DNA of 64,000 bases from a virus. The stretch is from IMG/VR virus record IMGVR_UViG_3300029286_003693, positions 18,731-82,730 of that record. One strand, written 5' to 3'. The notes below the pieces were generated by a model. The model had not been told where the DNA came from. It searched no databases and saw only the letters and a program-made list of their open reading frames with translations. A program made the translations under genes and the position numbers. This document shows positions 26,714 to 55,099 of the stretch, one piece after another (position 1 is the first letter of the stretch; each line of letters starts with the position of its first letter).

Positions 26714-27913
26714 CTATTTTGTCGCCGCTATCGTCAGGGTGAGTTTCTGGCAACCCGCGCACGAATCGACATTGAAAGCGATAACGTCACCAGCCACGAC
26801 ACTCGTTGTCCACGTAGACAGAGTGGTGTCGCTATTCATCTCCGCCACAGAAAGAGACGGCTTTTCCGTTCCAGTAATGGAGTCGGCTACCGTGGGAACA
26901 GCGCCGGCCTTTTTCCAAACGTCCAGGACGACGGTTCCTTGCGGACTGCCGACAAGATGCCATCCGGTAATCGTGCAGGCGAAAGGCATGATCAGGTATT
27001 GCTTAACCCCGACGGTAATCACCTGTCCCGCTCCGTCTATCGAAACCCCGAAACTGCCGGCGACGCTGCCCGTATCGCCTTTGTCGCCCTTGTCCCCTTG
27101 TGGTCCGGGAACGGTTGAGTCCGCCCCAGCCGGACCGACTTCACCCTGCGGTCCGGGAACGGTCGAATCCGCACCCGGGGGGCCGGTATCGCCCTTGTCG
27201 CCCTTTGGCCCAGGGACGGTCGAGTCCGCGCCCGCGGGACCGACCAGACTCGTCGGAGATCCCCAGGCCCCTCCCGTCTTCGGGCCGTAGATATCGGAAT
27301 TGCTGGTGTCGATATAGAAGTCGCCATTGACGCCAAGTCCTGCGCCGGGAGCTCCGCTTCCGCTCAGGACGGTTTTCCCGTCAGTCCCCGTTAGGCCAAT
27401 CAGCGATACTCCTGCCCCCCAATCCGCGCCATTCTTGGGGCCGTAAATCCTGGTAACGGCTGTGTCCAAGTAGAAATCGCCAGTCAACCCGAGATCGCTG
27501 GCAGGGGCGCCGACCCCATTGAGAACGGTCTTTCCGTCTGCGCCGTCTTCGCCGGGGAGGCCCGGAGCACCGTCGAGGTAGTCAATCCCCTTGACCGGCG
27601 TGTATCCGTCGGTTCCGGGCGCCCCGCCGTTCCCGGTGAAACCGATATCGCCTTGGTCCCCCTTGTCGCCCTTGTCGCCTTTCGGCCCTGGGACGGTCGA
27701 GACAGCGCCCATCGCGCCTGTGTCGCCTTTATCGCCCTTATCACCCTTCAGGCCACGCTGGGCATACGGTAGAGCATTCCAGGCAGTTATGCCGTTGCCT
27801 ATCTTGAACAGATCGCTGTCAAGCTCAGCCCCGATTTCACCTTCCGCAAGGATAGGGTTCTCGGCTGTCCAGTCTGCGGCATTGTCCCGCCTAAATTGAA
27901 TAACGACTGCCAT
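26714..27913 (-). CDS. Collagen-like tail fibre protein with Mtd_N-like N-terminus
   Basis: N-terminal QFRRDNAADWTAENPILAEGEIGAELD...KIGNGITAWNALPY; extensive Gly-X-Y triplets (GDKGDKGD, GADSTVPGP x3). Confidence 0.85.
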   Translation of the reverse strand: MAVVIQFRRDNAADWTAENPILAEGEIGAELDSDLFKIGNGITAWNALPYAQRGLKGDKGDKGDTGAMGAVSTVPGPKGDKGDKGDQGDIGFTGNGGAPGTDGYTPVKGIDYLDGAPGLPGEDGADGKTVLNGVGAPASDLGLTGDFYLDTAVTRIYGPKNGADWGAGVSLIGLTGTDGKTVLSGSGAPGAGLGVNGDFYIDTSNSDIYGPKTGGAWGSPTSLVGPAGADSTVPGPKGDKGDTGPPGADSTVPGPQGEVGPAGADSTVPGPQGDKGDKGDTGSVAGSFGVSIDGAGQVITVGVKQYLIMPFACTITGWHLVGSPQGTVVLDVWKKAGAVPTVADSITGTEKPSLSVAEMNSDTTLSTWTTSVVAGDVIAFNVDSCAGCQKLTLTIAATK

Positions 27914-28109
27914 CGGCTGCTCCTCCGCCATCAAGGTGTATCAGGTCGCCGTAGTGCGTGTTCGCGTGGCCCCCATCATAGTTGATGATGCCTCGGTACT
28001 GACGACCCGCTCCTGCCCCGCCTGGGCTGGTGATGATCGTGACATCGTCCGCCTCGCAGACGGTAACGACGCTGTCATCTTCTTCGTGGATTATGAACGG
28101 GTTGTCCAT
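27891..28109 (-). CDS. Small hypothetical tail-module protein
   Basis: 72 aa with C-terminal DGG motifs. Confidence 0.55.
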   Translation of the reverse strand: MDNPFIIHEEDDSVVTVCEADDVTIITSPGGAGAGRQYRGIINYDGGHANTHYGDLIHLDGGGAADGSRYSI

Positions 28110-32370: not shown

Positions 32371-32967
32371 TTAGCTCGTGGTACAGGTGATCTGGTACGT
32401 TACATAGATTTCATCATCGGCGATGACGGCACGGGGGGTCCCGAACCGTTTGGCGCACATCAGGGTGCCCGCCGCGCTGGTCTTCGCCGCCGTGTCAACG
32501 AGGAAGGCCCCGTAGACGGTAATCGACGCATTCATGACGAAGTGCGCCTTGGCGTTGACGTTCGTGATGACCGCGGTGGTCGTATCTTCCGTGGTGTACG
32601 CGGGCCGGTTGGTCAGCGGGTTGTCATAGTCCGCATCCTGGCACTCGCCGTAGGCATTGCCGGAGCCCAGCTTCGCTCCCGTGTCGGCCAGGGCCGGGGT
32701 AATGTTGTTTTTGAAGATACCGACGTACCAGATGTGCGACGCGGCCTTGGAGATGTCATGGAACATGATGTTCAGGAGCTTGGCCATACCCTCCGTCGTG
32801 AAGGTATTTGTCCCGGTTTCCGTAAAGAGCAGGACGCCATTGCGCCAGTGCTCAAACGTCACCTTGCCTTCGAAGATGATGTCATCCCATGCCCCTTTTT
32901 TCAGTCTCAAAAAGAGTGCCGTGACCATCAACCAGACCATCGCGATAAAACCCTTAATTCTGTCCAT
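32371..32967 (-). CDS. Putative virion structural protein
   Basis: 198 aa; NTFTTEG...ITVYGAFL...YVTYQIT pattern seen in phage tail proteins; AAGGAGG RBS. Confidence 0.7.
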   Translation of the reverse strand: MDRIKGFIAMVWLMVTALFLRLKKGAWDDIIFEGKVTFEHWRNGVLLFTETGTNTFTTEGMAKLLNIMFHDISKAASHIWYVGIFKNNITPALADTGAKLGSGNAYGECQDADYDNPLTNRPAYTTEDTTTAVITNVNAKAHFVMNASITVYGAFLVDTAAKTSAAGTLMCAKRFGTPRAVIADDEIYVTYQITCTTS

Positions 32968-32995
32968 TGTGTGTTCCTCCTTGTTGTGTGGTTGT

Positions 32996-33101
32996 TCGGG
33001 GCAAAGAAAAAGGGCGACAACGCTGATGTGCTGGCACCAGCATGCCGCCCTTGTTTCTCTCTTGCGTTCCCGTCCGGGTGGCCACCCTTCAGGGAAACCC
33101 C
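32996..33101 (-). ncRNA. Structured cis-RNA element, copy 1 (hairpin, CGCAAG, long terminator-like stem)
   Basis: Intergenic; structure shared with 38335-38436 with compensatory changes. Confidence 0.65.
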
Positions 33102-33113
33102 AACTACTAATGA

Positions 33114-34355
33114 TTAAAGAACTTTCCCGTTTCTTACGACCTCACAAGTCGCAGAGTCACCAAAGCCGACCCCACTCCCGCGAGGGCGTTCCTGCTTGAA
33201 GCTGGTCAAAAACTGCTCCCGCCCGTTCACAGTCCGGGACACCGCTGCCCCTTCCTGGCCGGCTGGGAACTGGACCCGGTCCTTTGTGAACTTGGCGAGC
33301 ACACCGCTATGCCCGCCCGCCATCAGGCCGTCTTTTGATACCCAAACCGGGACGTTGTTGCCCATATCCGGCACGTTGTTGCAGTAGGCGAGGATATTTT
33401 GCGCCACCCCTGCCCCGACATGGACCTCCCGCATCGCGCTCGGTTCTGTTCCGGGAAGGAAAATAGTCCGGTCATCGAACCCGACGAAGATTCCACCGTC
33501 CACAAACGCAACTAGAAGGATGTCATTGGGGAACGAGAACATGTTCGTCGATTTATAGAGGTCGTAACGATAGGGTTCACTGTAACGTAGGGTGCTGTCC
33601 ACCGCTCCCCAGAGGCGACCGAACGCCCGTCGGATGAACTTCATGGGGTTTGGCGGGCCGCAAAGAAAGGTCGGAAGGGGCTCCATGGTCTCGATCCCCG
33701 TGATCAAAGCCTGCTCTTCCGCAGCTCTGTAAAAGGTGCTTCCGTCCGGGTCTGTCGCCCATGCGATGACGCCGGATGGTTTGTTGAGAAGTGAAATCGT
33801 AGAGTTGTCGGCCATGATGTCAATCTCGGCAATCATCCCGTTGCCGCCAACCTGCCCCCCGACGACGTTTGTGTAGCAGACCTGGTAGCGTCCGGCGGTC
33901 AGCGCCCCGGTGCCATTCACCGCTGCGAGAACCGGCTGCTCCGAAATCGGTATCCCCCAGGTGCTCACCATGTTTTGTGCTGGATCGAGGATTCCCATCC
34001 AGTGGCGGCTTGAGATATAGATATTGTCGTCCACCGCGGCATAGAAGAGTTTCTCCTCGAAGGGGCCGGACAGGGCGCAAAGGTTGACCTTTGACCCATC
34101 AGGATAGAATCGGTAGAGTCTGCCTTCCGCCGCAGCCAGCAAGACATGCCTGGTGCCCCAGGCGCTATGTGCGTTTGGCAAACTGGCCAGAAGTCGATAT
34201 CCGCCCCGCTTCTTCAGCCGCTCCTCTGCCGTGACATCGGCGTTCAGAATGACCTTCGGGATCGCTGTCATCGTCCCATCGTCATGGCCCGAAAATCCGC
34301 CCTCTTCGAGTACGTTATTCATGCCTTTGAATCCCCTGATCGTTAAAGGTTTCAT
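33114..34355 (-). CDS. Putative tail tubular/nozzle (DNA stabilization) protein
   Basis: 413 aa, beta-rich; FKGMNN start motif; position after the adaptor gene in a podovirus layout. Confidence 0.65.
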   Translation of the reverse strand: MKPLTIRGFKGMNNVLEEGGFSGHDDGTMTAIPKVILNADVTAEERLKKRGGYRLLASLPNAHSAWGTRHVLLAAAEGRLYRFYPDGSKVNLCALSGPFEEKLFYAAVDDNIYISSRHWMGILDPAQNMVSTWGIPISEQPVLAAVNGTGALTAGRYQVCYTNVVGGQVGGNGMIAEIDIMADNSTISLLNKPSGVIAWATDPDGSTFYRAAEEQALITGIETMEPLPTFLCGPPNPMKFIRRAFGRLWGAVDSTLRYSEPYRYDLYKSTNMFSFPNDILLVAFVDGGIFVGFDDRTIFLPGTEPSAMREVHVGAGVAQNILAYCNNVPDMGNNVPVWVSKDGLMAGGHSGVLAKFTKDRVQFPAGQEGAAVSRTVNGREQFLTSFKQERPRGSGVGFGDSATCEVVRNGKVL

Positions 34356-34993
34356 CAGAAATCCAGCCTTGTCCGTTGGACATCCGCTCTTGCCTTGGGC
34401 GCGTTCGGGTAGAAAGCGACCAGAGAGGCAATCCCGTTTGCGGCCAGACCGCTGTATTTCTGCGTGTTCGGCATCACTCCGTCGAGCCCGTCCTCGATCT
34501 GGATGTATGCCTCTTTGAGAGTGTAATTCTGGAAGATCTCCTTGTGAAGAATCTCCGGGATGTAGTCGGGAAACACGTCCCCGACTGCCAACTCCTTCGG
34601 TTTTCCGTAGAAATGAAGCGTCATATTCTCGGCATCTTCCGGGATGGGCCTGAAGTTCAGGATCTTCCCATCAAGGCAGATGATCTGCACGGGGCCGGTC
34701 TGTGTATCATTGGAATTCGCCTTCAATTCCTTAATGTTCGGGGCAATCAGAATGCCCTGTGGGTACGTCGGTGTCGTCACGAGGTAGAGGTCATGCAGGT
34801 AGGTCTTCGGAAGGGCCGCTGTTAGTGCCGCTGCTGCCGCCTCTACCACTGCGGTCGTCTGAAGGCCAGGGATTCGGCACATCGTAGCCAATAGGAGCAG
34901 GGCCTCGTTGAACTTTCCGATGATCCAGGTCTCGTCGTAAGTCGCGTCCTGGACTATTTTCTCAACCTCTGTCACGATTGCATCTACTTCCAT
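34355..34993 (-). CDS. Putative head-tail adaptor protein
   Basis: 212 aa; position and FRPIP...IPEILH pattern. Confidence 0.65.
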   Translation of the reverse strand: MEVDAIVTEVEKIVQDATYDETWIIGKFNEALLLLATMCRIPGLQTTAVVEAAAAALTAALPKTYLHDLYLVTTPTYPQGILIAPNIKELKANSNDTQTGPVQIICLDGKILNFRPIPEDAENMTLHFYGKPKELAVGDVFPDYIPEILHKEIFQNYTLKEAYIQIEDGLDGVMPNTQKYSGLAANGIASLVAFYPNAPKARADVQRTRLDF

Positions 34994-35415
34994 CAGTTTT
35001 TCCTCTTCTGCGGTCTCTTTGATCCTTTTTTGGGATAGGCCGGGCGATCCGGTTCATCACTCTTGTCTATCTGCCCAACATGGGGCGCGTAAGCATCCTT
35101 ACCGACCTGCTCATGCACGGGCATCTCGTTCCCGAAATGCGCCGACATGCGGCTCTCGGCAGTCTCCGGGACAGCTTCGGCTGAGTCCGCAACAGGCGCC
35201 ACTTCATCCACCACTTCTTCGGTAATCTTCTTCAGGACGTTGTATTCCTTGAACGCGGTGTTGTGGAACGGGTCCGAGATCCTTTTGATGTGCTCCTGGT
35301 CCGTGATATCACTGACAAGGTGCCCATGATCGTTTCGCTTGAACTTATAGGCCGTCCCCGCCAGGTTGACGATGCACTCGTTCTGGTCTCTCTCGACCAA
35401 CAATTGAACCTGCAT
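34993..35415 (-). CDS. Hypothetical head-module protein
   Basis: Start MQVQLL with GGAGGAG RBS; 140 aa. Confidence 0.65.
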   Translation of the reverse strand: MQVQLLVERDQNECIVNLAGTAYKFKRNDHGHLVSDITDQEHIKRISDPFHNTAFKEYNVLKKITEEVVDEVAPVADSAEAVPETAESRMSAHFGNEMPVHEQVGKDAYAPHVGQIDKSDEPDRPAYPKKGSKRPQKRKN

Positions 35416-35503
35416 AACTCCTCCAATGTTTGTAGGCCGTGACGGTGGAGCGAGAAGAGGGGGCACCCCCACCGCCACGCCTACGGGGTTGTGTGGACCC
35501 TTT

Positions 35504-35950
35504 TTAGCCGCCGTACTCCGCGGCGCGGTACGTCAGAATCCCACGAATAGTCCCTGCTGCGGCTGTTCCCGCTGCCGTGGTGATGTGCATCCCAAACAGG
35601 GTCTCCGTCTCGACGGGGGCCACCATCGAAAACAGAGTCGAACGGGCAACCCCACCCGCCTGGGCCACGGTAGACGCGGGAACCATGATCTGATCAACCG
35701 CGTCCTCCGCTGCATTGATTCCGCCGCCATCCACGACGATTGCAGGGCTGCCGGCGGAATCCAGATCGTCAACGATGAGGGTGAAATCCAGGGGGATGCA
35801 CCCAGCCGGGAGCGAGCACAGCGCGATGGTCTGCTCGTCCACGTTCAGAGCGGCGGTGATTTCATACGAGCCGTCGCTCACCAGAACCTTGCCAGCCTCG
35901 TCCGGGTAAACCGCAGGACGGGCGCCTGCTACATTTGCCGATTTCAACAT
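35504..35950 (-). CDS. Putative capsid decoration/cement protein
   Basis: 148 aa directly after the major capsid gene; LPAG...DDLD pattern. Confidence 0.65.
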   Translation of the reverse strand: MLKSANVAGARPAVYPDEAGKVLVSDGSYEITAALNVDEQTIALCSLPAGCIPLDFTLIVDDLDSAGSPAIVVDGGGINAAEDAVDQIMVPASTVAQAGGVARSTLFSMVAPVETETLFGMHITTAAGTAAAGTIRGILTYRAAEYGG

Positions 35951-36020
35951 AGTCGTGTCTCCTTTTCCTTTACTGAAGGGGGAGATCCGTCTCCCCCGCT
36001 GTCATTCCTGCGATCCCCTG

Positions 36021-37124
36021 TTACCCGACCGGCTGCTTGGCTGCCGTGTCGATTGCCATGATCCCGAAGTCCTTGGCGTTGAACTGCACCTTGGAGATTC
36101 CGAAGATCGAGTGCGTGCTGATCACGACCTGGTTTCCGCTGTCTCTCTCCTCTTCGTACCAGCCGAAGCGGAGACCGTTGCCCTTGGAACCGAAGGCGAT
36201 CACTGCCGCCTGGACGCCCATGAACAGAGCCCGCGCCGCCTCAACGGTCGCGGGGTTGCCGTAGTCGGCCATACGGATTACGGCCTGGTGCTCATGCAGG
36301 ACCACGTTGTTATACATGCCGAGCCCGCCCTGGAAGATCGGGTTCTTACGGCCCTCTGCCGCTGCCGCCGCCTTCTGTATGTCCAGCCAGCCAGAGCCGC
36401 CCGTGGTCTGCCGAAGGTCGTACACCTGCCACGGGTTCATCAAGAGGACGAAGTGCTTCTCGCCGTTGATGAGGATCGGCTGAATCTTGGGGGTTCCCCC
36501 CGTTCCGCCTCCCATCATCGAGGCCATAGCCACAGCCTTGTCGATGAGTCCCAGGGTGATCGTGTCGCCCGCGGCAATGGTCGTCTTGATCTTCGTGCCC
36601 GGCATGAGCAAGTGCTCGGTGTCGGGGGCGTTGAAGGCGTTCCCTGCAAATCCCGCGTAACTGGTCGGGAAGATGTAGTCCGCATTGGACCCGCGGAGCC
36701 CGGACAGATACATGAAGAAGAGCTCGTCGAATACCCGGCTCCACCATTCCGACTGCCGTACCCGTGCGATCTCCCGAAGCTGGTGGATCGTCCGCTTCTG
36801 GGTCATCCTGCCGCCCGTGTTCACCCCGCCGCGCATCTGATTGATCAGGATGTCGTCGGAGTAGAACTTCAGGTCCTCTTCTTTCCCGGTCAAAGGGGTG
36901 TCCCCTTCCACAGGTTGCATTTTCAACTGCATGACGAGGTCGAAGGAAACCTTGTCTCCCGCCGTGCTTTCGAGGTCTTTTACGACCTGGATGGGCATAC
37001 TGGAGCCTTCAGCGCCCATGAACTTGCGGGAGAAATAGGAATCCCGCGCCACGTCTACCGCAAGGAATGCCGAATACTTCTTGACGGCCTTGGGGTCGTT
37101 TACACCGATGATTGTCTGTCCCAT
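36021..37124 (-). CDS. Major capsid protein (N4-gp56 family-like)
   Basis: MGQTIIGVNDPKAVKKYS...AGDKVSFDL...GGRMTQKRT...NPIFQGGLGMYNNVVLHEH. Confidence 0.9.
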   Translation of the reverse strand: MGQTIIGVNDPKAVKKYSAFLAVDVARDSYFSRKFMGAEGSSMPIQVVKDLESTAGDKVSFDLVMQLKMQPVEGDTPLTGKEEDLKFYSDDILINQMRGGVNTGGRMTQKRTIHQLREIARVRQSEWWSRVFDELFFMYLSGLRGSNADYIFPTSYAGFAGNAFNAPDTEHLLMPGTKIKTTIAAGDTITLGLIDKAVAMASMMGGGTGGTPKIQPILINGEKHFVLLMNPWQVYDLRQTTGGSGWLDIQKAAAAAEGRKNPIFQGGLGMYNNVVLHEHQAVIRMADYGNPATVEAARALFMGVQAAVIAFGSKGNGLRFGWYEEERDSGNQVVISTHSIFGISKVQFNAKDFGIMAIDTAAKQPVG

Positions 37125-37244
37125 TGCGTATCCTCCTAAAAGTGATAGAAAATGTTTTTGTGTTTCACCATCTCTCCATTTCCCCCATCACTTCCCGGTC
37201 ATCGGGCTGGCTATGTTTGAACCAGAACGTGGGATGTACTGTCT

Positions 37245-38303
37245 TTATGAGCGGGCTGCGTAGATCGCCCGTTCCGTATCGCTCATCTTGGCGACTGCGT
37301 TCTCGTAGGCTTCCCCTGTGAGCTTATCAATCGCGTCATACTTGTCGTCTCCCTGATTCCCTTCCGATACCGGGACCTTGGCAAGCGTCTTGACACCCGC
37401 GGCCCTCTCGGCCTCCGCCTTCTTTGCGGCTTCGATAGCCTTGCGCTTCTCCTCGGCGGCCTCAATAGCCGTGCGCTTCTCTTCGATGGACACGACATTG
37501 CCATCGTCCGCCTTGGGCGGTCCTTCCGGGTGGAAAACCGCGTCGCATTCTTTCTTTGCGGCTGCGAAAATCTGGGCGTCGGTCATCTTCTTCGACTCGT
37601 CGGTGGCCAGGAGCCGGTTGACGGCGTCCACAAAAGCCACATTCTTGATCCGCTCTGCGGAATACTCTGGGTTGCTGCTAAAAAAATCGGCTTGGGCGTC
37701 CTTCCATCCCTTTTCAGCTGCAGCCTTCTGGACCTGGGCGTTGATCTTGTCGAACATCTTCATCTCGGTGAGCGATTCGACGTACTCGGCGCGTTCCTTG
37801 TTGTAAGCGGCCAGGGTGATGTCCCCATCCTCGAACTTCGTGTCGAGCGCCGTCATCTTGGCTTCGATTTCCTCCCTGGTTCCGTGCTTTTTCTCGGCCT
37901 CCAGGATGAAAACAGGTTCGTTTTTGGGTACAATGACGGTCGCTGCCGCAGCTGACTTTTCCGCCTTCTGCGCTGCCTCCAGGTCTGCCGCCTCTTTGGC
38001 TGCCTGGACTGCCGCTGCCGCCTCTGCGTCTGCCGCCGCCTTGGCTTTGGCCTCTTCTTCGAGCTTCTCTGCTTCCGCTTCCGCTTCCTCCGCCGCCTTC
38101 TCCTCTTCAGTCTTCTCCTCCACCGCCTTCTTCTCGACCGTCCGCTTGGCTTCCCCTGCCCCCTCTTCCTTCGCCTTGGCGGCTGCGGCGGCCTCTTCCT
38201 CGGCTTTGATCTCCTCCGTGCTCTTGTTTTCCGTTTCCCCATCAAGGGCCTCTCGCTCTTCGGGGCTCAGCATCGCCAGCTCGTCTTCCGTGATCTTTCC
38301 CAT
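37245..38303 (-). CDS. Putative capsid scaffolding protein
   Basis: 352 aa Glu/Ala/Lys-rich helical protein between portal and capsid. Confidence 0.75.
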   Translation of the reverse strand: MGKITEDELAMLSPEEREALDGETENKSTEEIKAEEEAAAAAKAKEEGAGEAKRTVEKKAVEEKTEEEKAAEEAEAEAEKLEEEAKAKAAADAEAAAAVQAAKEAADLEAAQKAEKSAAAATVIVPKNEPVFILEAEKKHGTREEIEAKMTALDTKFEDGDITLAAYNKERAEYVESLTEMKMFDKINAQVQKAAAEKGWKDAQADFFSSNPEYSAERIKNVAFVDAVNRLLATDESKKMTDAQIFAAAKKECDAVFHPEGPPKADDGNVVSIEEKRTAIEAAEEKRKAIEAAKKAEAERAAGVKTLAKVPVSEGNQGDDKYDAIDKLTGEAYENAVAKMSDTERAIYAARS

Positions 38304-38334
38304 AATGTCGTCCTCCCTCTCTGTCCCGGGTTGA

Positions 38335-38436
38335 TTCGGGCAACAAAAAAGGACGGCTGTAGAAGTGTAGGCTCCTACAAGCCGTCCTCGTTTGTTCTTG
38401 CGTCCCCTTTCGGTATGCCTACCGTCTGGGGAACCC
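38335..38436 (-). ncRNA. Structured cis-RNA element, copy 2
   Basis: Intergenic between portal and scaffold; same architecture as 32996-33101. Confidence 0.65.
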
Positions 38437-38456
38437 TTATTTTCTAATAACTACCC

Positions 38457-40892
38457 TTACTCCTTATGGTTGTTGCTCTTCAGTCCCCTTTCGACTGACC
38501 CGTTCGGCTTGTCCTTCGCCTTGACCAATTTCTCGTCGAGGGCCAGGCGCTTTACATCCATGATCCGGGTATGCTCGCCCGCCTTTTCTGTGTTCTCAGC
38601 GTTCCGCTCGGTCATCATCAGACCATGCGCCGCCGACTCCTCTTTGACGTTCTGATCCCGCGTCTGCATGGTCCTCTGGTGCTCGCCCTGCTCGATGGTA
38701 TTCAGCGTGCTGGCCTTCTCCATCCGGAGCTTTTCCTTGTCATAATCGACACCCGCGGCGCTCACCTGCTGGTTAACCGACTCAGTCTTGATCTTCGCGG
38801 CGATAAGCTGGGCTTCTTGTTCAAGCTTCTTGACCTTCGCCTGTTCGGCTGCGAGCTGCGTCTGAAGGATCTGGTTTTGTGTCTCTGCCGCCTGCGTCGC
38901 TGCATCTGCCTTGGCCTGATCTGCAGCCTGATCTTCGGGAGTGGCCGCACCCTCAGTTCCCCGTTGGCCGGTGATTGCCCTGAACCGATCGACAAACTTT
39001 TCTTTACCGGGTAAATCGGACAACTCGAACCATAGATCAATAACTTGTATTGCTGCTTCGGGCTGCAAGGTCTTGAGGATCTCAGTCATTGACTCGAACA
39101 TGGCCTCGCGGATCGTCGCGGAGTAATCCTGCTCGGAAATGACGAAATCGGCCTGACTTGCCGTGATGTCGCCGATGATCTCATCCGTCTCCGGGTCATA
39201 TTTGTTGATCTCAAGGAACTCGGGCGTCTTGCCGTTCTCGCCCCCGGTGATCCGGATCTTTTTTTCCTCGGTGTAGAGCTGCTCGATCATCGACAAAATG
39301 ATTTCACCAGACAGCTTGAAGGCCAGCCGGTTGTTATCGAAGAATGCCGTCGTTACAACACCGCCCTGCTCCTGCCGCGCCCTGATCGCCTTCCCCGACA
39401 CAGCATTCGTGTCCCGCCCCATCAGTTCGTCCGTCACGCCTGACGCGCTCTGGATGTACTTCTCGTCCTGGGTCATCAGCATGACGTGCTCTTCAGCCAT
39501 CTTGTTCTCGTTCTGGATCTCGACCCCGCGTTGACTCTTTGGGTTGACCTTGATCAATCCGTCCGGGCGATTCGCCTCCTGGACGATGTCGCTCCAACTC
39601 TGGTCGGTGTTGTCGATCGCGTCGTCATCCGCCATTACCCGGTTGGCTGACAACAGGTAGAGAGCCTTTGACCGGCGCTTGTTCAGGTCTTTCTGCGGGT
39701 CTCTGAGATTCCGGACAATGCCGTAGGGCGTCCCGTCCTTCTTCCGTTTGAAGCCCCAGATCGGCACCAGACTGAAGCGCTTGTGTCGGTACGGGCTCTC
39801 CCCGTCCTGCAATACCGAGTCGCCGGTGAAGATTATCTGACGCATCTCCATCACGGTTGACTCGACCGGCTGACCGATTCCCAGCTCCACCAGTTTCTGG
39901 TGCTTCCCCTCATCGAACGTGATCCCCTGAAGCGTTCCCAGTTCCTTGCCGCGCAACAGCTTCTTTCTTGCCGGGGTCCGATACTGACACTCGACCAGGA
40001 ACACACGATCCCGCGGCTCAACAGAGGTCTGGGTGCCGATGTACCCGAAAAACCCGGTGTACTGCGGCATAAAGCCTGTACTGCTGTGCGGCATCCCGCC
40101 CGCCATCTTTGGATCGAAGGCAGGATCAAGCATTTCCGCAAAGGTCTCGTACCCGAATCCCTGATCCCCGCTGATAACAGAAGCATGGATAACGTCCGCC
40201 CTGTCCGGGAACATGGCACAGGCAACGTCTTCATCCACCCACTTGCCCCTGAAAACGTAACGGGCGTCGGAGAGGTCGTCCTCGACGGCCAGCGTGTCCC
40301 ACCAGATGTATCGCCAATCCTCGTAAGAGACGACAAGGGGCTCGTTGTCCGGGTCCGCGTTGATCCCGTGATCGATCCACCCTACCCCGGCCAGCACGGC
40401 ATCGGCGAATGACTTCGACCGCTTGAATCCCGCGTTGTTCGCGTCGGAGACGTATTTGAAGAGCTTCGTCTTCATCTCCGCGCTCTTCGCGTCCTCTTCA
40501 CCCCTGGGTAGAACGCGATAGTCAACCCGGATCTTCTTTTCAGTCCCGAGCACCCAATCGACCGTTGGCTTGACCTGGTTGAAGGTGATCGGCACCTGGG
40601 TCCGTTTGGCCAGGATCGCCTTCTCTTCCTGCGTCCACTGCCCCGGTCCGTCGTAAAACTCATGGTCTACCATCGACTCACAACGGAAATCGGCCTGTCG
40701 CACCCTCTCTTGGGCGAACCATGACGACACCTTCGTGAACCGCTTGCGGACATCCTCCCTGTCGAGCGGATGAACTCCTTCGGGCGGCTTTTCAAGCCCC
40801 AGATCATCCAGGTGTTCATCAACGTCGAACTCGCGAGGGGTGTATTCCTCGATGCTCCTTACGTTTTCGGCTCTTTGAGTTCGCTCGCTCAT
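38457..40892 (-). CDS. Portal protein (P22-like)
   Basis: 811 aa; FYDGPGQW, ITFNQVKP, YGIVRNLRDPQKDLNKRRSK, SGKAIRARQEQG; C-terminal coiled coil. Confidence 0.92.
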   Translation of the reverse strand: MSERTQRAENVRSIEEYTPREFDVDEHLDDLGLEKPPEGVHPLDREDVRKRFTKVSSWFAQERVRQADFRCESMVDHEFYDGPGQWTQEEKAILAKRTQVPITFNQVKPTVDWVLGTEKKIRVDYRVLPRGEEDAKSAEMKTKLFKYVSDANNAGFKRSKSFADAVLAGVGWIDHGINADPDNEPLVVSYEDWRYIWWDTLAVEDDLSDARYVFRGKWVDEDVACAMFPDRADVIHASVISGDQGFGYETFAEMLDPAFDPKMAGGMPHSSTGFMPQYTGFFGYIGTQTSVEPRDRVFLVECQYRTPARKKLLRGKELGTLQGITFDEGKHQKLVELGIGQPVESTVMEMRQIIFTGDSVLQDGESPYRHKRFSLVPIWGFKRKKDGTPYGIVRNLRDPQKDLNKRRSKALYLLSANRVMADDDAIDNTDQSWSDIVQEANRPDGLIKVNPKSQRGVEIQNENKMAEEHVMLMTQDEKYIQSASGVTDELMGRDTNAVSGKAIRARQEQGGVVTTAFFDNNRLAFKLSGEIILSMIEQLYTEEKKIRITGGENGKTPEFLEINKYDPETDEIIGDITASQADFVISEQDYSATIREAMFESMTEILKTLQPEAAIQVIDLWFELSDLPGKEKFVDRFRAITGQRGTEGAATPEDQAADQAKADAATQAAETQNQILQTQLAAEQAKVKKLEQEAQLIAAKIKTESVNQQVSAAGVDYDKEKLRMEKASTLNTIEQGEHQRTMQTRDQNVKEESAAHGLMMTERNAENTEKAGEHTRIMDVKRLALDEKLVKAKDKPNGSVERGLKSNNHKE

Positions 40893-40899: not shown

Positions 40900-42189
40900 T
40901 CAACCCTCTGCCACCGTTATCAAAAGAGGTTGCACGCTGTTGATCCGTTTGTCGGCTATCTCAACATATTCAGGATTCAGTTCGATCCCGATGAACCCAA
41001 ATCCCTCCGCTGCCGCTGCTTTCCCTGTTGAACCGCTACCCATGAAGGGATCAAGAATCACGCCGCCGGGAGGCGTAACAAGGCGGCAGAGGTAGCGCAT
41101 CAGGGCGGTTGGTTTGACTGTGGGGTGGAAATTACCCTTCGTGTCTGTGTTCTCAACCTTTCGGAGTGTGGTACCGTGGTGGAACTGGGGGCCAGGATTA
41201 TTCAGCCCTTCATTACGATCTTCCCGGCTCGCCTTTGCGCAGTAGAAGAACCGGGCGGTTGAACCGGAGTCGCCGGGGGTGTCGCGCTTTGTAATGTCTG
41301 GGTCCATGTATCCGTAGGTATTCCGGTTAGGTCCTTCAGAATTAAGCCTTCTTTGTCCTGCAGACATCTTCCCGCTCGTCGTCACCGGAAACAGCCCCAC
41401 CACTTGATCGCTGCCGTCATATATAAGGTTGGCAGGCCAGCGTCCGTTTGCACTCACGACCTCTGGCGTGTCGCTCCCTGTCTGATTCATCCCCCATCCA
41501 TTTTTCTCGCTTTTCTTCGAGCGGTTCATTGTCCTCAATTGTGATGCGTCGGCCTTCGGGTCAATTCCCACCCTGCACCCATCGATATTCAATCCCCCCG
41601 TCCCATACTTCAGGACGTTGGCGGCCACGGTACCGATTAAGGGCTTCCGGCAAACCAAGACCGGCTCCCATGCTGGCTTGAGGGCAGTGCCCCAGCCTTC
41701 CCATTGACGGGCGGTATCAGTTGCGGGGGCGGTGATGTCAAAAACCTTTCCACTTCCATCCATGTACCCAATTCCAGTATCCCCTTTACCGTGATTGTCG
41801 AGCTTTATCCTGTGCGGCCCACTGCCGTTTTCGTTGACGCCCACCACTTGCCGTTCTGCCCCCGCCGCCTTGTCGATCGCCTTACTCACATCTAGCGACT
41901 TAGGGAACCCTGAACCATACACCCACATCACGGTATCCCGAATCTCCCACCCCGCATCCTCTATCGCAACAGCCAGCCGGTGAAAGGTTCGTGTCCCACC
42001 AAAGGCCAGCATATACGCACCCGGCTTCGCTACCCTCAATGCCGCTTCCCAAAACGGAACACCCGGCACACCGTGATCCCAATCCTTACCCATGAAGGAA
42101 AGGCCATAAGGAGGATCACAGACGATGGAGTCAACCGATTCGGTTTCAAGCGTTGGCATAATGTTCAGGCAATCGCCCTCATAAATCAT
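40900..42189 (-). CDS. DNA amino-methyltransferase (beta class, DPPY)
   Basis: IVCDPPY motif IV; HPTVKP; ILDPFMGSGSTG motif I. Confidence 0.92.
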   Translation of the reverse strand: MIYEGDCLNIMPTLETESVDSIVCDPPYGLSFMGKDWDHGVPGVPFWEAALRVAKPGAYMLAFGGTRTFHRLAVAIEDAGWEIRDTVMWVYGSGFPKSLDVSKAIDKAAGAERQVVGVNENGSGPHRIKLDNHGKGDTGIGYMDGSGKVFDITAPATDTARQWEGWGTALKPAWEPVLVCRKPLIGTVAANVLKYGTGGLNIDGCRVGIDPKADASQLRTMNRSKKSEKNGWGMNQTGSDTPEVVSANGRWPANLIYDGSDQVVGLFPVTTSGKMSAGQRRLNSEGPNRNTYGYMDPDITKRDTPGDSGSTARFFYCAKASREDRNEGLNNPGPQFHHGTTLRKVENTDTKGNFHPTVKPTALMRYLCRLVTPPGGVILDPFMGSGSTGKAAAAEGFGFIGIELNPEYVEIADKRINSVQPLLITVAEG

Positions 42190-42569
42190 GACTGCATCAT
42201 CCCCACTTTAATATCGGGCCTGTTACTCGCCGGCTGCATGTCGATCACCGTGTTCGGGTCGTCGTACCCTGCCCTGAACGGCGGCATCTTCACGAGGTCG
42301 TCTATCCCATCCATGATCGTGTCTGTTATTGAAGACATCACCTGCACGAACTGACGCTTGCGCGTCGGCACCTCAATGTCAAACAACTTGCAGATTTGCA
42401 GCACCTTACCTGTTATGAACCCCCCGAACTCATCATTGTGCGTGTCGCTGTATTTCCAGAGGTCATCCAGTGTGATGATGAAGCGCTTCTTATTGTCCCG
42501 TTGCGCCCCGTTCAGGATCATGACTGGTTTACCCTTGAAGTATCCGTAGTCCCTCTCGATTACTCTCAT
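42186..42569 (-). CDS. Hypothetical protein
   Basis: 127 aa, coupled to both neighbours by ATGA overlaps. Confidence 0.7.
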   Translation of the reverse strand: MRVIERDYGYFKGKPVMILNGAQRDNKKRFIITLDDLWKYSDTHNDEFGGFITGKVLQICKLFDIEVPTRKRQFVQVMSSITDTIMDGIDDLVKMPPFRAGYDDPNTVIDMQPASNRPDIKVGMMQS

Positions 42570-43759
42570 GCTGTCACCGCGAATAAGAGAGGCTGCACGT
42601 TGTTAATCCGCTTCTCTGCCATTTTTGCATACTCAGGATTTAACTCGATACCGACGAAATTACGGCCTAACTTCTCGGCCACCAGCCCCGTTGTTCCGGC
42701 GCCGGAGAAGGGATCAAGGACGACGCAGGGAGTAGGTTCGTGGTTGTGGGTGCAGGTCGGTCGCCAATCGTTTGTTGCTATCCGTTGTGGCGTATATGTT
42801 GCGCCACTGAGCGACCTAATCCCTGAAGGATTTCCACCCTTATCTGGGAAATAATCTCCAACATCTTTTCGCGCCCTATCGTTCGTAGCACCCGTTTTCT
42901 CCACCATCCTCACCCACGGACTCCCGCACTCGGGGCAGCACCCCTTCTCACTCGTTCCGGCCTTAATACATGGCGTCACAAGGGCTTCGGGGAATGTGGC
43001 AAAATGGGCTCCAGGGAATGGCTGGGTGGGAATAGTCCAGACAGAACGGCAGTTGCGGCCAGTAGGATGGCCAACGCTGCGTTTCCGGCCGATTTTAGTT
43101 GCAGAGCTGGCTTTACTAAATGGGTCTATTAAATCCTTATGTTTTCCACCGATACGGTCTCGGCTTTCCTCCATTTTCTTAATATCAGATGGTCCGCTTT
43201 GACAAGCTTCCTTGATTGCCTCCGCGTCATAGTAATACCGCTGACTCTTAACCAGTAGGAACAAATACTCATGACTCTTTGTCGGTCTGTCCGTTACACT
43301 CTCTGGCATGGGGTTCGGCTTGTGCCAGATAATGTCGGAACGTAACCACCATCCGTCAGCTTGAAGGGCGAAGGCCACGTGCCAGGGGATCCCAATCAGG
43401 TCTTTGGGCTTCAATGTCTTAATATTGGTAGGCATACCAAAACGTGATTTTTCTGTTGATGGCTTACCAAACTCAGTATGTTTTGCTTGATATTCTGGGT
43501 TGCTTCCTGCTTTCCCGCTGCCATTATACGAATCTCCCAAATTCAACCACACCGTCCCGTCATCCCGCAGCACCCTCCGCACTTCCCGGAACACGGCTAC
43601 GAGCTTGGCTACATAGGCGTCTGGCGAATCCTCCAGCCCGATCTGGCCATCCACCCCATAATCCCGAAGGCCGTAATATGGCGGCGATGTCACAACACAC
43701 TGAACAGAATCGGGTTCAAGCGCAGGCATAATGTCCAGGCAATCACCTTGATAAATCAT
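42566..43759 (-). CDS. DNA amino-methyltransferase (beta class, SPPY; probable m4C)
   Basis: VTSPPY; HFATFP; VLDPFSGAGTT; Cys-rich insertion CCPECG. Confidence 0.92.
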   Translation of the reverse strand: MIYQGDCLDIMPALEPDSVQCVVTSPPYYGLRDYGVDGQIGLEDSPDAYVAKLVAVFREVRRVLRDDGTVWLNLGDSYNGSGKAGSNPEYQAKHTEFGKPSTEKSRFGMPTNIKTLKPKDLIGIPWHVAFALQADGWWLRSDIIWHKPNPMPESVTDRPTKSHEYLFLLVKSQRYYYDAEAIKEACQSGPSDIKKMEESRDRIGGKHKDLIDPFSKASSATKIGRKRSVGHPTGRNCRSVWTIPTQPFPGAHFATFPEALVTPCIKAGTSEKGCCPECGSPWVRMVEKTGATNDRARKDVGDYFPDKGGNPSGIRSLSGATYTPQRIATNDWRPTCTHNHEPTPCVVLDPFSGAGTTGLVAEKLGRNFVGIELNPEYAKMAEKRINNVQPLLFAVTA

Positions 43760-45093
43760 GCGGCCCACCCCGATAGCACCTGCCTGGTTCCTTGTTTCTG
43801 AATCCTCTTTGCCTTATACCCAACGGCAAATGTCCTGAAAGAATCCGCCCCGTGAGAGCAGTGGTCATGCAGCGGTGTCCGCTTGAGAATCTTTTTTTCT
43901 TCGTCGTATTCGGCCCTGTAGCCTTCCAAAGCCGATATGCCGGGTGAACACTTGCGTTCGTCAAACCAACACGAGCCAAGGGCGTTTCTGACGGCCTCGA
44001 TGCCGTTCATGACGGCGTCCGTGTTCCGGGGGCGCTCAACGACGATGATGGGCTTGATCCCCAGCTCCTCGGCTACCTCAACCCTGGACTTCGCGTGCTC
44101 CCCGGCGGACATTTCTCGTACCGCTGCGTCGTGGGGCATATAGTGATCACCGTAAACATAGGGCTTCTCTTTCAGGATCTTGGCGTAGTGAGCCAGGCCC
44201 ATGCCACTGTTCTCGTAATAATCGATGCACCTGGTCTCCTTGCCGATGAACTGCGCGAACCAGATCGTCATGCTGTCGTCCACACCCAGATCCCAGAACG
44301 TGTAGACCTCGGCGCCAGTCTCGTAGGGCACGCGGGTGATGCGGCCCTCCTTGTGAGCCAGCGCCATCTGCTTGCCGTAGTACGCGCCCATCACTGCGCC
44401 CTGGAACGAGCAGAAATACTCCTGCTGAAACATAGCCTCGCCCATCTCTTCGCCGAACGTTCCAACCAGCTCGGCACGGATCTCCTCCAATTTCACCTTG
44501 GTGAAGACAGGGGTGTCATCTGCGGTCAGGACTTGAGCGAACCAACCGGGTGTGATGCGGGCGAAATCCAACATTGTTTTCAGATGATTGTCGCCGCGGG
44601 ATGTGCTGATGAACGCGGCCCAGCCGCCATTTTCTTCGAGTATCGGGGAAAGGTAAGCCCATGACTGCGGGTTTGATAGCGCGTATTCGGAGAAGACGAT
44701 GCCGATCGGTGGGCTGCCGACCAAGGCATTGTAATTGTCGGAGCCCACAAGCTGCCAGGAAGAGCCGCCAACGAGGCCAATGTACATATCGGTGCTTCTC
44801 GTACTGGTCCTCATCTCCATCGGAAACGCCTCGTCGATCCTCTTCATGCCTGTGCGGGGGTTGACGGCTTCCCAAATCGCCTTACGGCACTGATTGAACT
44901 GTGGGAGCATGTGCCAGTAGTTTCCGACACGCTCCTGCGATGCCGTGGCGGTGAAGTGAAGGGCAATATCATCCTTCCCCCAGCGACGATGGGCGACCTC
45001 GACGGCACGCTTCCCACCATTCTCCAGGTAATCCCAGAGGGCGATCTGATCGTCGCGGGGTTCCCACCCGTTATGAGGTAGCTCGACTCCCAT
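43756..45093 (-). CDS. terL: Terminase large subunit
   Basis: HRRWGKD Walker A variant, IVFSEY, ISTSRG, WDLGVDD, SHGADSFR nuclease motif. Confidence 0.92.
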   Translation of the reverse strand: MGVELPHNGWEPRDDQIALWDYLENGGKRAVEVAHRRWGKDDIALHFTATASQERVGNYWHMLPQFNQCRKAIWEAVNPRTGMKRIDEAFPMEMRTSTRSTDMYIGLVGGSSWQLVGSDNYNALVGSPPIGIVFSEYALSNPQSWAYLSPILEENGGWAAFISTSRGDNHLKTMLDFARITPGWFAQVLTADDTPVFTKVKLEEIRAELVGTFGEEMGEAMFQQEYFCSFQGAVMGAYYGKQMALAHKEGRITRVPYETGAEVYTFWDLGVDDSMTIWFAQFIGKETRCIDYYENSGMGLAHYAKILKEKPYVYGDHYMPHDAAVREMSAGEHAKSRVEVAEELGIKPIIVVERPRNTDAVMNGIEAVRNALGSCWFDERKCSPGISALEGYRAEYDEEKKILKRTPLHDHCSHGADSFRTFAVGYKAKRIQKQGTRQVLSGWAA

Positions 45094-47545: not shown

Positions 47546-47618
47546 CTGCTTCTCCTTCTGGGCTTACCGCTATTAAATTCACTCCGTTATTTTAAGATTC
47601 CGAAGAGTGCACTAATTA

Positions 47619-47771
47619 TCCTTGCCTTGCCGAGCCACACCCGGCCTCGCCACACTGAGCCATGTCTAACAGTGCCTGTCCTTGCCAGAACTACCCCAAC
47701 CCAATCTCGCCTTGCCCAACCACATCCTGCCTTATCCTGCCGCACCTGGCCCCGCCATGCCAAAACTTGCC
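47619..47771 (-). repeat. (GGY-NN)n pentamer array C, 31 units; candidate guide RNA
   Basis: Unbroken 5-nt phase; 20 of 31 trimers are exactly GGY and the rest differ by one base; starts 2 nt after a stop codon. Confidence 0.9.
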
Positions 47772-48204
47772 GACTACCGGAACGCCTCCAATGTCTTCAC
47801 ATACGGAAGCTGATCTTGAGTCTCTTGCACTCTTGCTTCGATCTTTTTGATGCTGCTACCCTTCGTCATCACAGCCATGACTCCCAGCACAGACGCATAA
47901 GTGTTTAGCCTGACCTTCTCCTCATTCGGCATGATCGACATATCGGATATACAGGCCATCCGATTGAGAGACCTCCTGGTCGTTCGTTTGATATGGGCAA
48001 TGCTGAATGCGCCCGTGTTGATAATCTCGGTATCATCCTGTAACCCCGCACATTATTTTGATTGAAGCGGGTATCTTTTTATCACGATGTTTTGTATGAG
48101 AGGCAGAGTCGTGCACATTGATTTGATCATAAAGAAAGAGGGCAACCGAAGGTTGATTGGTTTGGCCGCCATCCCCGTTGGTTACCCTCTCAGAAAGCGG
48201 TATC

Positions 48205-48660
48205 TTGATACTACACCTTGCGGTCGATGTAAAGGTTTTATTCGAGAGGGGGAAGAGGTTCCCATGGTTGAAGCATTTGCGGTGCCCTCGATGTGGGAGC
48301 GCGAGACTATGGGGGCACGGATTTGCGGAGCGATATTTTGAGGGATTCGGCAAGTGTTTATGGGTGAAGCGGTTCCGCTGTCCGGATTGTCTTGCCATCC
48401 ATACCTGCCGGCCATTGGGATTTTTGAAAGGTTTTCGATATTCTGCCGGCGTGATCCGTTCAAGTCTGTTGAAAAAGATTACGGAGAACGCCTGGGTCAG
48501 AGGCGTTGTGCGGCAGAACCAGCAGTACTGGTTTCGTTGTCTTCGGTTTCGGATCTCCGGTCGCTGTAATGTGAACAAGCCCGCCATCGATTCCATCGCG
48601 TTATTTTTTTCCGAGAGAATCTTTCCCGTGACAGAACATTTTGCGCCGCTGCGCATATGA
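48205..48660 (+). CDS. Cys-rich accessory protein of the element (DUF6431-like); start uncertain
   Basis: CPRC...HGFAER...KRFRCPDC...HT. Confidence 0.7.
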   Translation: MILHLAVDVKVLFERGKRFPWLKHLRCPRCGSARLWGHGFAERYFEGFGKCLWVKRFRCPDCLAIHTCRPLGFLKGFRYSAGVIRSSLLKKITENAWVRGVVRQNQQYWFRCLRFRISGRCNVNKPAIDSIALFFSERIFPVTEHFAPLRI

Positions 48661-48743
48661 TGGTTTCCCCACCTTCTTCTTGCGTCGATAAGTCCATGAC
48701 GCCTCTGGTATGGGTAGCGAAAATCTTTCAGGAGGTGTTTGCT

Positions 48744-50847: not shown

Positions 50848-51211
50848 AAAGAACACCAAACACCGGAAGGGATAACCCATCCCTTCCGGTCAATCTCTAT
50901 TGCAAAACATCAAACGATTGTAAGATTATCGAGTCAATTTATTGTGCGACGTTACACATCCAGGCGTTTCAGCCCCTGGTTGATTACCACGCCGAATATC
51001 TTCCCATCTTCACGTTCTGCCATGCTGCGGGCCGTGTTGAGAAAACCACGCCCTTCCTTCTGGACATCCCGCCCGATAATCCCATTAAGCTCTTCGTATG
51101 TGACAAAATCTCCGATGTCCATCTCCGCCAACCGCTGATACATCAACCTTGCGTCCGCGCTTGCCTCCCTGATCCATTTCTTTTCCATTCCCCTCCCCTT
51201 CCTGTTAGAAA

Positions 51212-51309
51212 ACCTTGCCTAGCCTCACTGTTCCACGCCCTGCCAAGCCACGCCTTGACGCGCCCAGTCTAATCTTTCCTTGCCGAGCCGCTCCCAGCCC
51301 AGCCCTGTC
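51212..51309 (-). repeat. (GGY-NN)n pentamer array B, 20 units; candidate guide RNA
   Basis: Unbroken 5-nt phase; 12 of 20 exact GGY; starts 2 nt after the Cas7-like stop codon. Confidence 0.9.
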
Positions 51310-51311
51310 TT

Positions 51312-51869: not shown

Positions 51870-51900
51870 AGATTTCCCCTCTCTCGTTTGTGATTAAATA

Positions 51901-55091: not shown

Positions 55092-55099
55092 GGAAAACG

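Follow-up and report, generated by a model that had tools for sequence, protein, structure and literature searches.

How unequal amounts of virion proteins are obtained from one long late transcript is, to our knowledge, poorly understood beyond a few model phages. Two gaps in the late operon of a temperate phage raise this question: what RNA do they encode, and how might it act on the genes that follow?

Two copies of a structured RNA in one late operon

The window analysed is a stretch of 64,000 nucleotides (positions 18,731 to 82,730 of IMG/VR record IMGVR_UViG_3300029286_003693, an 82.7-kb provirus record) from a phage whose integrase and CI-like repressor mark it as temperate. A sequence-only reading had placed two copies of a structured RNA on the minus strand, at 32996-33101 and 38335-38436. 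Both were located there, within the bounds of a covariance model given in Table 1, and there are exactly two copies in the window and also in the whole record. They occupy gaps between co-directional genes of the late operon and are mid-operon, not promoter-adjacent. When aligned, the copies show 83% column identity, and RNAalifold analysis revealed 30 shared pairs, 7 of which are preserved through two-sided changes. The minimum free energy (MFE) is -55.9 kcal/mol for copy 1 (z = -4.76) and -52.0 kcal/mol for copy 2 (z = -7.47), with 0 of 200 shuffles equally stable in each case. A consensus scan showed no sigma-70-type promoter within or just before either copy; a promoter in the A-rich flank would be without a -35 partner, and a start there would drop the 5' strand of the covarying helix P1 described below.

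Table 1. Positions in the window of the two copies, their parts and the neighbouring genes (bit scores from cmsearch with models R1 and R2).
Feature	Position	Strand	Remarks
Copy 1, whole element	32992-33103	-	130.2 bits (R1), 106 bits (R2)
Copy 1, P1 5' strand	33097-33102	-	
Copy 1, P2 arm with inner hairpin	33067-33096	-	loop GGCC
Copy 1, junction strand	33060-33066	-	CGCAAGA
Copy 1, P3 arm with A-rich linker	33003-33059	-	
Copy 1, terminator-like hairpin	33012-33050	-	within P3 arm
Copy 1, U tract	33003-33011	-	within P3 arm
Copy 1, P1 3' strand	32997-33002	-	past U tract
Copy 2, whole element	38331-38439	-	123.2 bits (R1), 103.4 bits (R2)
Copy 2, P1 5' strand	38433-38436	-	GGGU; partner 38338-38341
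Copy 2, P2 arm	38403-38432	-	outer stem, 3x3 internal loop, P2b hairpin, loop GGCA
Copy 2, junction strand	38396-38402	-	CGCAAGA, near invariant; read from sequence
Copy 2, P3 arm	38342-38395	-	A-rich linker, stem, loop, U tract in order
Copy 2, alternative mini-hairpin	38366-38379	-	5' arm of upper P3 and loop
Copy 2, U tract	38342-38350	-	within P3 arm
Copy 2, P1 3' strand	38338-38341	-	GCCC, directly past U tract
Portal gene	38457-40892	-	upstream of copy 2; phrog_156, E 2.7e-159
352-aa scaffold-like gene	37245-38303	-	downstream of copy 2; phrog_8246, phrog_334
Major head gene	36021-37124	-	after the 352-aa scaffold-position gene
Head-closure Hc3 gene	33114-34355	-	upstream of copy 1; phrog_8040, E 2e-38
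198-aa gene	32371-32967	-	downstream of copy 1; phrog_8123, function unknown

A large RNA family ahead of virion genes

The observation proved larger than the sequence-only reading supposed, as the two copies are confirmed members of a large RNA family. A covariance model, R1, was built from the two copies, as that reading had suggested, and used to search relatives L002-L009, which were fetched via the portal protein alone. The family was recovered: 11 full-length matches lay at both syntenic places, which with the two window copies gives an unbiased but small set of 13 sequences in all. A structure-blind sequence pattern detected at least 119 loci in viral contigs; 80 of these were fetched, and 80 of 80 carry a model match at E <= 1e-7. 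From genome contigs 80 pattern loci were fetched (84 stretches matched), yielding 32 matches with E <= 0.001, whose metagenome-assembled genome (MAG) labels include Syntrophorhabdus, Syntrophales, Deltaproteobacteria, Planctomycetota and others. Five host genomes contain just one or two copies each, in phage contexts only. The family is a large and so far unnamed one of RNA domains of about 105-112 nucleotides in the late (virion) operons of phages, and is widespread in uncultured phages, including prophages in MAGs of several phyla.

Comparison with Rfam 15, also suggested beforehand, revealed no family reaching its gathering threshold. In a cmscan of the whole window two tRNAs passed and nothing else; copy 1 at E <= 10 gave chance-level matches only (the top one scored 21 bits, where the threshold is 50, and lay on the opposite strand), and 18 family members at E <= 0.1 gave one unrelated miRNA match. 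When copy 2 was searched with blastn against 50,697 records of cultured phages, just two chance-level matches came back. The element is absent after the portal gene in Bcep22 and Ralstonia phage Gervaise, where the gaps measure 7-10 nucleotides (7 in Bcep22); since cultured relatives do without it, this type of phage can dispense with the element. In relatives of Bcep22 a CsrA-like gene sits between portal and capsid.

Gene context across the family agrees with the earlier claim that the element lies directly upstream of structural genes. A median of 17 nucleotides separates the stop codon of the upstream gene from the start of the element, and a median of 24 nucleotides separates its end from the downstream start codon; of 101 downstream flanks, 85 have an SD-like motif, lying a median of 15 nucleotides past P1. 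Downstream ORFs have a PHROG match in 49 of 76 cases, among them 10 major head, 9 major tail, 6 scaffold and 4-5 head protease genes. Upstream genes include those for portal, head protease, head morphogenesis, tail terminator and decoration proteins, and the element is found in phages with unrelated structural modules. Both flanks are A-rich and single-stranded, with 60-80% A at positions -8 to -4 on the 5' side and about 50% A downstream.

A covarying three-way junction with a terminator-like arm

The fold is a three-way junction of helices P1, P2 and P3, with the CGCAAGA strand between P2 and P3. P1 clamps the domain at both ends, an internal loop interrupts the P2 hairpin, and P3 is an arm of 21-23 bp with small internal loops in single-sequence folds, comprising in copy 2 a 7-bp GC-rich stem base, an 8-bp upper stem and a 6-nucleotide loop. 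Single-sequence folds gave the same architecture in 97 of 110 members. The claim of a covarying structured RNA on the gene-sense strand holds in an alignment of 102 sequences, in which 96.0% of cells pair, compared with 47-49% when partners were slid; double changes occur at 26 of 30 pairs, and the covariation score is 0.676 against 0.07-0.10 in the slid controls. Double changes in the family affect 4 of 5 P2 pairs and 4 of 4 P2b pairs. For P1, 71.9% of cells pair, compared with 20-31% in slid controls (one slide with only 3 cells was set aside), and the outer P1 pairs covary, one of them being CG in 32, AU in 27 and GC in 18 sequences; the selected RNA therefore includes bases past the U tract. 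G-U pairs are common (43 of 102 sequences at one pair, and U-G in 100 of 102 at a P1 pair), so that the selection fits the gene-sense strand only.

Across the family alignments the CGCAAGA junction strand is conserved, GGGUUY and CGCAAGA are near invariant, and the P3 apex is conserved as GGNGC-C. The invariance of GGGTT, GCAAGA, TTGCCC and the T run is partly ascertained, because the search patterns required the first three and, in one scan, the T run. GGGUUY, CGCAAGA and the P3 apex go beyond a plain terminator and point to a partner or to a tertiary fold.

The terminator-like arm that had been proposed is present: in 110 of 110 members a U-rich tract comes after a GC-rich hairpin, as in an intrinsic terminator. 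Every tract is 9-11 nucleotides long, has exactly one non-U base and lies directly behind the GC-rich stem. When the pattern was run without the T-run requirement, 69 of 74 true members still fitted the T-run pattern and the other 5 were U-rich. The arm does not, as an intrinsic terminator would, mark the end of a transcription unit, the next co-directional gene beginning a median of 24 nucleotides on. In MFE folds 87% of tract bases are paired with the A-rich linker; it is possible, therefore, that the tract is merely one strand of an A:U helix. The non-U base pairs with the linker as CG in 39, UA in 36, GC in 23 and UG in 7 of the 110 sequences, and is otherwise unpaired (4) or paired elsewhere (1). 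Pairing of the tract with the A-rich 5' flank was rejected, as by eye the flank ignores the variable base of the tract. Pattern scans of positions 9000-46000 found 42 terminator-like sites, not above shuffles, none of the others being as strong as those of the element. One contig of an RNA library, 356 nucleotides long, leads from the upstream gene through copy 1 and its U tract as far as position 32965; by eye, its loose end passes on into an L002-like relative's downstream gene. These data are assembled contigs, possibly with DNA, which can neither show transcript ends nor rank genes. Copy 2 has low cover, itself not informative on ends, in metatranscriptomes X16, X17 and X19.

Two alternative pairings had been suggested in addition to this fold. 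The mini-hairpin is real, conserved and under selection, with strong covariation of the P3 loop with the 5' arm. The mini-hairpin state is less stable by 8.9 kcal/mol on average and keeps the stem beside the U tract intact; because it costs about 9 kcal/mol and spares the terminator base, it is not an antiterminator. Antitermination was examined further by folding RNAs cut short ahead of the stem base's 3' strand. The 5' strand of the stem base was mostly free (27% paired) and paired with upstream parts over at least 4 nucleotides in just 11 of 109 sequences. The truncated folds show no conserved competing pairing, contrary to the terminator/antiterminator switch that had been envisaged. The proposed loop-loop pairing also failed: P2b loops fall into classes GGCC, GAUC, GACG and GGCA, which do not covary with the P3 apex in the 102 sequences.

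Candidate functions and comparison with known systems

Taking the family, its fold and covariation, its position and its gene context as established, we infer termination, its leakiness or control, and effects on mRNA stability or translation. The element probably controls the amount of late message that reaches, or survives at, the genes for abundant virion proteins. Our main reading, with a probability of roughly 0.4, is that it is an intrinsic terminator, leaky or gated, which acts in cis to punctuate late mRNA just before the genes whose virion proteins are most abundant. A polymerase that stops would leave an upstream message ending 3' in a hairpin, while one that reads through would make the P1 3' strand, allowing the element to shut into a compact junction with A-rich single strands on both sides, abutting the downstream ribosome-binding site. 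The closed junction may then insulate and stabilise the downstream cistron. The element may help to set virion protein stoichiometry, or may serve in processing or in regulated termination. A terminator before the genes for the most abundant proteins would be a paradox, unless polymerase comes to override it late or its purpose is stability and not attenuation. More speculatively, and rather unlikely, the element could represent a new class of self-contained RNA device serving phages whose hosts belong to several phyla, in which the invariant junction and P2 engage a universal machine (RNA polymerase, the ribosome or a ribonuclease) and the covarying two-register P3 hairpin acts as a built-in folding timer. 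Such engagement might, late in infection, overrule the terminator that the element carries, or else make a nuclease-resistant plug that would shield capsid and tail messages.

A processing or stability element without termination is a somewhat unlikely alternative to the leaky or gated terminator. The closed junction would be a ribonuclease site or barrier that sets the strongly expressed downstream cistron apart and shields it; RNase III might act on the long P3 helix and RNase E on the A-rich flank, or the junction might obstruct scanning or 5'-to-3' decay. The position before genes needing a step-up in expression, the P1 covariation, which demands a read-through form, the A-rich single-stranded flanks and the RNA-library contig spanning the element are all consistent with this, as is the 21-23-bp P3 helix, which in predicted folds provides the approximately two turns of double-stranded RNA of an RNase III site. 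It leaves unexplained, however, the constant U strand of P3a (8-10 U of 9-11 nucleotides) after a GC-rich stem, and the hosts belong to phyla with differing RNase sets. If, instead, the P2 arm and junction strand were a receptor for a phage late protein or RNA polymerase, the element could be a factor-dependent gate (N/nut-like, put-like or LoaP-like) that permits passage only late and holds capsid and tail genes off in the lysogen. A partner is suggested by the invariant single strand and the conserved loop classes, the terminator anatomy is canonical, and the element is confined to phage contexts, in the window a temperate phage. Nonetheless, a gate of this kind appears quite unlikely: a regulator search of the window with PHROGs and Pfam recognised no antiterminator protein or RNA-binding family, the structural modules are unrelated and so have no evident shared phage factor, and the element is not promoter-proximal. 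Involvement of CsrA was rejected, as no CsrA match was found among the scanned window ORFs between portal and major head and, by eye, only a minority of P3 apices read GGA.

An excised stable small RNA acting in trans, or a DNA-level linker for recombination of phage modules, would account for P1 connecting both ends, as in stable RNAs, for the same element adjoining unrelated genes, and for P2 and P3 arms that look shuffled between close relatives (by eye, L004 has its P2 in common with L006 and its P3 with L002). This is improbable given that CGCAAGA is the sole conserved single-stranded seed, that the variable parts are unlike between the two copies of one phage, and that G-U pairs and covariation indicate selection on the RNA itself. 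We likewise disfavour, as highly improbable, a plain constitutive terminator to which the neighbouring hairpin and the rest are incidental; the GC-rich stem and U tract are as expected for one, but the terminator is enclosed by a covarying P1, P2 covaries, the junction strand is invariant and a co-directional gene begins about 24 nucleotides on. The model of the sequence-only reading, a ligand-sensing riboswitch or terminator/antiterminator switch, agrees with a structured domain preceding a terminator and with the covarying mini-hairpin. It is nevertheless extremely improbable, since antiterminator pairing is not conserved, the alternative state is costly and spares the stem by the U tract, the P1 3' strand lies past the terminator, against the known layout of aptamer and platform, and conserved unpaired bases are few.

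This compact, strongly covarying module recurs before capsid, scaffold, protease and tail-tube genes, spans unrelated structural modules and hosts of different phyla, and is found neither in Rfam nor in cultured relatives. It offers concrete material for testing whether termination is regulated, or mRNA punctuated or protected, in the phages of uncultured anaerobes and, if functional in heterologous hosts, could become a portable part with which to tune expression inside operons.

No description of the motif was found in the literature, where one catalogue that may contain it was available in part. This catalogue lists candidate structured RNAs from IMG/VR (Fremin et al. 2023; PMC10690425), including DNAVirus_1925, which is listed no more than 25 bp ahead of 174 major capsid genes of HK97 type and of 10-17 major tail genes. 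DNAVirus_1925 has the same downstream-gene signature as the element family, a likeness by domain list alone, and the available portions of the text and supplement mmc8 state neither its function nor its structure. An antitermination system is described for Tn916 (PMC11658703, available in part).

Like intrinsic (Rho-independent) terminators, the element has a GC-rich hairpin followed by a U-rich tract of 9-11 nucleotides and, as in terminators with an upstream A tract, an A-rich stretch that pairs with the tract. Unlike them, it sits inside a covarying three-way junction closed by a helix that draws on bases past the U tract, has an invariant junction strand, and lies within an operon about 24 nucleotides before the next gene. 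The phage RNA phi29 pRNA is also built on a three-way junction, and complementary loops had been proposed for the element; covarying complementary loops are absent, however, as the P2b class is unlinked to the P3 apex in the 102 sequences, and the element differs further in being intercistronic with a terminator-like arm. The put sites of HK022 are two-hairpin RNAs just past the early promoter that make polymerase termination-resistant. By description, the element resembles them in having two covarying copies per phage, each a multi-hairpin RNA acting (here putatively) in cis on transcription, but put sites are promoter-proximal without a built-in terminator, whereas the element is in the middle of the late operon with a terminator-like arm. 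The lambda sib/tI retroregulator and the T7 RNase III sites are phage intercistronic structures with a long helix and, unlike the element, are not three-way junctions with its junction strand. By description only, the element resembles these in its long helix, a possible RNase III substrate, and in that its terminated and read-through RNAs would fold differently.

Two copies of a structured RNA in a late operon

Two minus-strand stretches of about 110 nt, described from the sequence as copies of a covarying structured RNA, were located in the window as described (copies 1 and 2 in the table). They align with 83% column identity and share a consensus fold of 30 pairs, seven of which persist although both partners have changed, bearing out the covariation proposed in the sequence-only reading. 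Both fold better than all of 200 shuffled sequences (z = -4.76 and -7.47 for copies 1 and 2, respectively). Covariance models built from the two copies and, later, from 102 sequences recovered exactly these two, whether the window or the entire 82.7-kb provirus record was searched.

The window phage is a temperate, Bcep22-like tailed phage with an integrase gene adjoining a tRNA gene, a CI-like repressor and replication genes. The tRNA–integrase arrangement resembles a prophage attachment site. Its late operon, on the minus strand, runs from terminase through two DNA methyltransferases, portal, copy 2, a 352-amino-acid gene in the scaffold position and the major head protein to small head genes, adaptor, head closure Hc3, copy 1, and further virion and tail-fibre genes. 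Cultured relatives lack the element: in Bcep22 the post-portal gene starts 7 nt on, and in Ralstonia phage Gervaise the gap is 10 nt. A CsrA-like regulator gene lies between the portal and capsid genes of cultured Bcep22-like phages (5624-5818 in Bcep22, locus L313); no counterpart was seen at the portal–capsid position in the window. The 5' ends of the two methyltransferase genes are 84% alike over 58 nt. Other repeats were also noted (table): those with a 63-nt period suggest that the encoded proteins are built from 21-residue repeats, and the ~39-nt repeats could be protein-binding sites.

Features of the window, with positions in window coordinates
Feature	Position	Strand	Remark
RNA element, copy 1	32992-33103	-	
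RNA element, copy 2	38331-38439	-	
tRNA gene	63071-63142	-	directly follows integrase gene
Second tRNA gene	55980-56062	+	
Integrase gene	61814-63046	+	
CI-like repressor	55084-55734		
Two paralogous DNA methyltransferase genes	40900-42189, 42566-43768		just upstream of portal gene
Gap before major head gene	37125-37244		121 nt
GC-rich 8-bp hairpin	35980-36005	-	directly 3' of major head gene; no U tract
Tail-fibre gene	26714-27934	-	collagen-like triplet repeats
Direct repeats, 63-nt period	14547-14987, 16190-16573		in two large minus-strand ORFs (534, 549 aa)
~39-nt repeat	47613-51958		core CCTTGCC..GCCAC; six scattered copies; early/replication region

Family, fold and genomic setting

Relatives obtained via the portal protein alone (L002-L009) contain 11 full-length matches, in both syntenic places. 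A pattern of conserved letters with free spacers occurred at 119 or more places in viral contigs, and all 80 viral-contig loci fetched match the model at E<=1e-7. Among contigs representing one genome per species the same pattern gave 84 stretches; 80 were fetched, yielding 32 matches at E<=0.001, which sit in metagenome-assembled genomes labelled Syntrophorhabdus, Syntrophales, Deltaproteobacteria, several Planctomycetota and others, as well as in one isolate assembly, from Anaerohalosphaeraceae, a host breadth that is provisional because phage contigs may be wrongly binned. Whole-genome searches of five of these genomes found one or two copies each. Rfam gave no match when the whole window, copy 1 (with a lax threshold) or 18 family members were compared with it. 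In close relatives, whose portals are 87-94% identical, the element has a mosaic look: by eye, L004:5598-5706 combines a P2 arm as in L006:5495-5603 with a P3 arm as in L002:4985-5094, which hints at recombination within the element.

The fold consists of an end-closing helix (P1), an arm with an internal loop (P2) and a terminator-like arm (P3). In P1, GGGU pairs with GCCC, extended by one or two outer pairs. P2, which begins without a spacer, carries an internal loop of 3-4 nt per side and an inner hairpin, P2b, and is followed by the near-invariant strand CGCAAGA. P3 opens with an A-rich linker, which leads to a GC-rich base of 7 bp, then to 8 bp of upper stem and a loop of 6 nt; on its return strand, a U tract of 9-11 nt directly joins the 3' strand of P1. 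Across 102 sequences, in an alignment that was fitted to the model, 96.0% of cells are paired (47-49% when partners are slid), double changes occur at 26 of the 30 pairs, and the covariation score is 0.676 (0.07-0.10 in slid controls). Single-sequence folding, an independent check, recovered the same three arms in 97 of 110 sequences. The outer P1 pairs, unconstrained by any search pattern, covary (CG 32, AU 27, GC 18, others), with 71.9% of cells paired versus 20-31% when slid. Every one of 110 U tracts holds exactly one non-U, which in single-sequence folds pairs with a matching linker base (CG 39, UA 36, GC 23, UG 7), is unpaired (four cases) or pairs elsewhere (one). As most of these sequences were gathered with search patterns, GGGUUY, CGCAAGA and the U tract may be less invariant than they look. 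G-U pairs are frequent, and the RNA strand is therefore the gene-sense strand.

On the median, the element begins 17 nt past the stop codon upstream of it and stops 24 nt short of a same-strand start codon, with an SD-like motif in 85 of 101 downstream flanks, a median of 15 nt past P1. Flanks are A-rich (60-80% A upstream at -8 to -4; ~50% downstream). In 101 members, the 40 nt before P1 carry a conserved A-rich motif, ~TTAA(A/C)AAT(C/T)N, and stop codons just ahead of the element often occur in more than one frame. PHROG matches were obtained for 49 of 76 downstream ORFs (27 had none): 10 major head, 9 major tail, 6 scaffold, 4-5 head protease, 3 adaptor, 2 tail fibre, 2 portal and 1 terminase, the remainder being of unknown or other function. 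Among the upstream ORFs are portal, head protease, head morphogenesis, tail terminator, decoration and terminase genes, alongside several whose function is unknown. Because these flanking protein families differ widely, the element is common to phages with unrelated structural modules.

Termination, read-through and alternative roles

P3 has the anatomy of a canonical terminator. With a search pattern that contained no T run, U-rich tracts were found in every one of the 74 true members, and in 69 of them the tract includes a run of five or more T. Uridines on one strand only, right after a GC-rich base, are hard to explain without termination; set beside this, a role purely in processing or stability, the foremost rival, appears unlikely. 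In pattern scans of positions 9000-46000, terminator-like sites were no commoner than in shuffled sequence, and apart from the two copies no site was comparably strong. Covariation of P1 argues for a read-through form. One 356-nt contig from an RNA library extends from the end of the upstream gene over copy 1 to 38 nt past the U tract and, by eye, goes on into the gene that lies downstream in an L002-like relative; since contigs may derive from DNA, its support for read-through is weak. We tentatively favour, at a probability of about 0.4, an intrinsic terminator, leaky or gated, that acts as punctuation in the late message. Terminated RNA would finish in a protected hairpin, and read-through RNA would close into a junction abutting and insulating the ribosome-binding site of an abundant-protein gene. 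A gate that depends on a factor is improbable, a trans-acting RNA or recombination linker decidedly more so, and a terminator that does nothing else, against which the P1 covariation speaks, seems slightly less probable still.

The switch model of the sequence-only reading drew on an alternative mini-hairpin and a loop–loop pairing. The mini-hairpin is real. Because the P3 loop complements the 5' arm of the upper stem, two alternative partners, in direct repeat, are open to that arm; pairing is specific to a sequence's own loop (mean -2.73 kcal/mol versus -0.66, sd 0.09, with loops swapped among sequences) and covaries (90.7% paired versus 22-53% slid; score 0.866), with G-U nearly absent. Compared with the long hairpin, this state is less stable by a mean of 8.9 kcal/mol, and it leaves the stem base beside the U tract intact; it is therefore not an antiterminator but would be a folding intermediate or a state held by protein or ligand. 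The loop–loop pairing did not hold up, as P2b loop classes do not follow the P3 apex. Nothing else that is conserved competes with the terminator stem, upstream pairing occurring in 11 of 109 sequences, and a riboswitch-like switch is the least probable of the roles considered. The CGCAAGA junction strand, the conserved P3 apex and the two-register hairpin are accounted for by none of these readings, the leaky or gated terminator included.

Relation to catalogued viral RNAs

Full-text literature searches found the motif described nowhere, and it may already be included in the catalogue by Fremin et al. 2023 (PMC10690425), which lists 8,495 candidate structured RNAs from IMG/VR. One entry, DNAVirus_1925 (supplement mmc8), is given no structure or function in the passages of that paper available to us or in part 1 of the supplement. 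It is found no more than 25 bp ahead of 174 HK97-type capsid genes and of 10-17 major tail genes and, compared by downstream gene list only, may be this RNA family.
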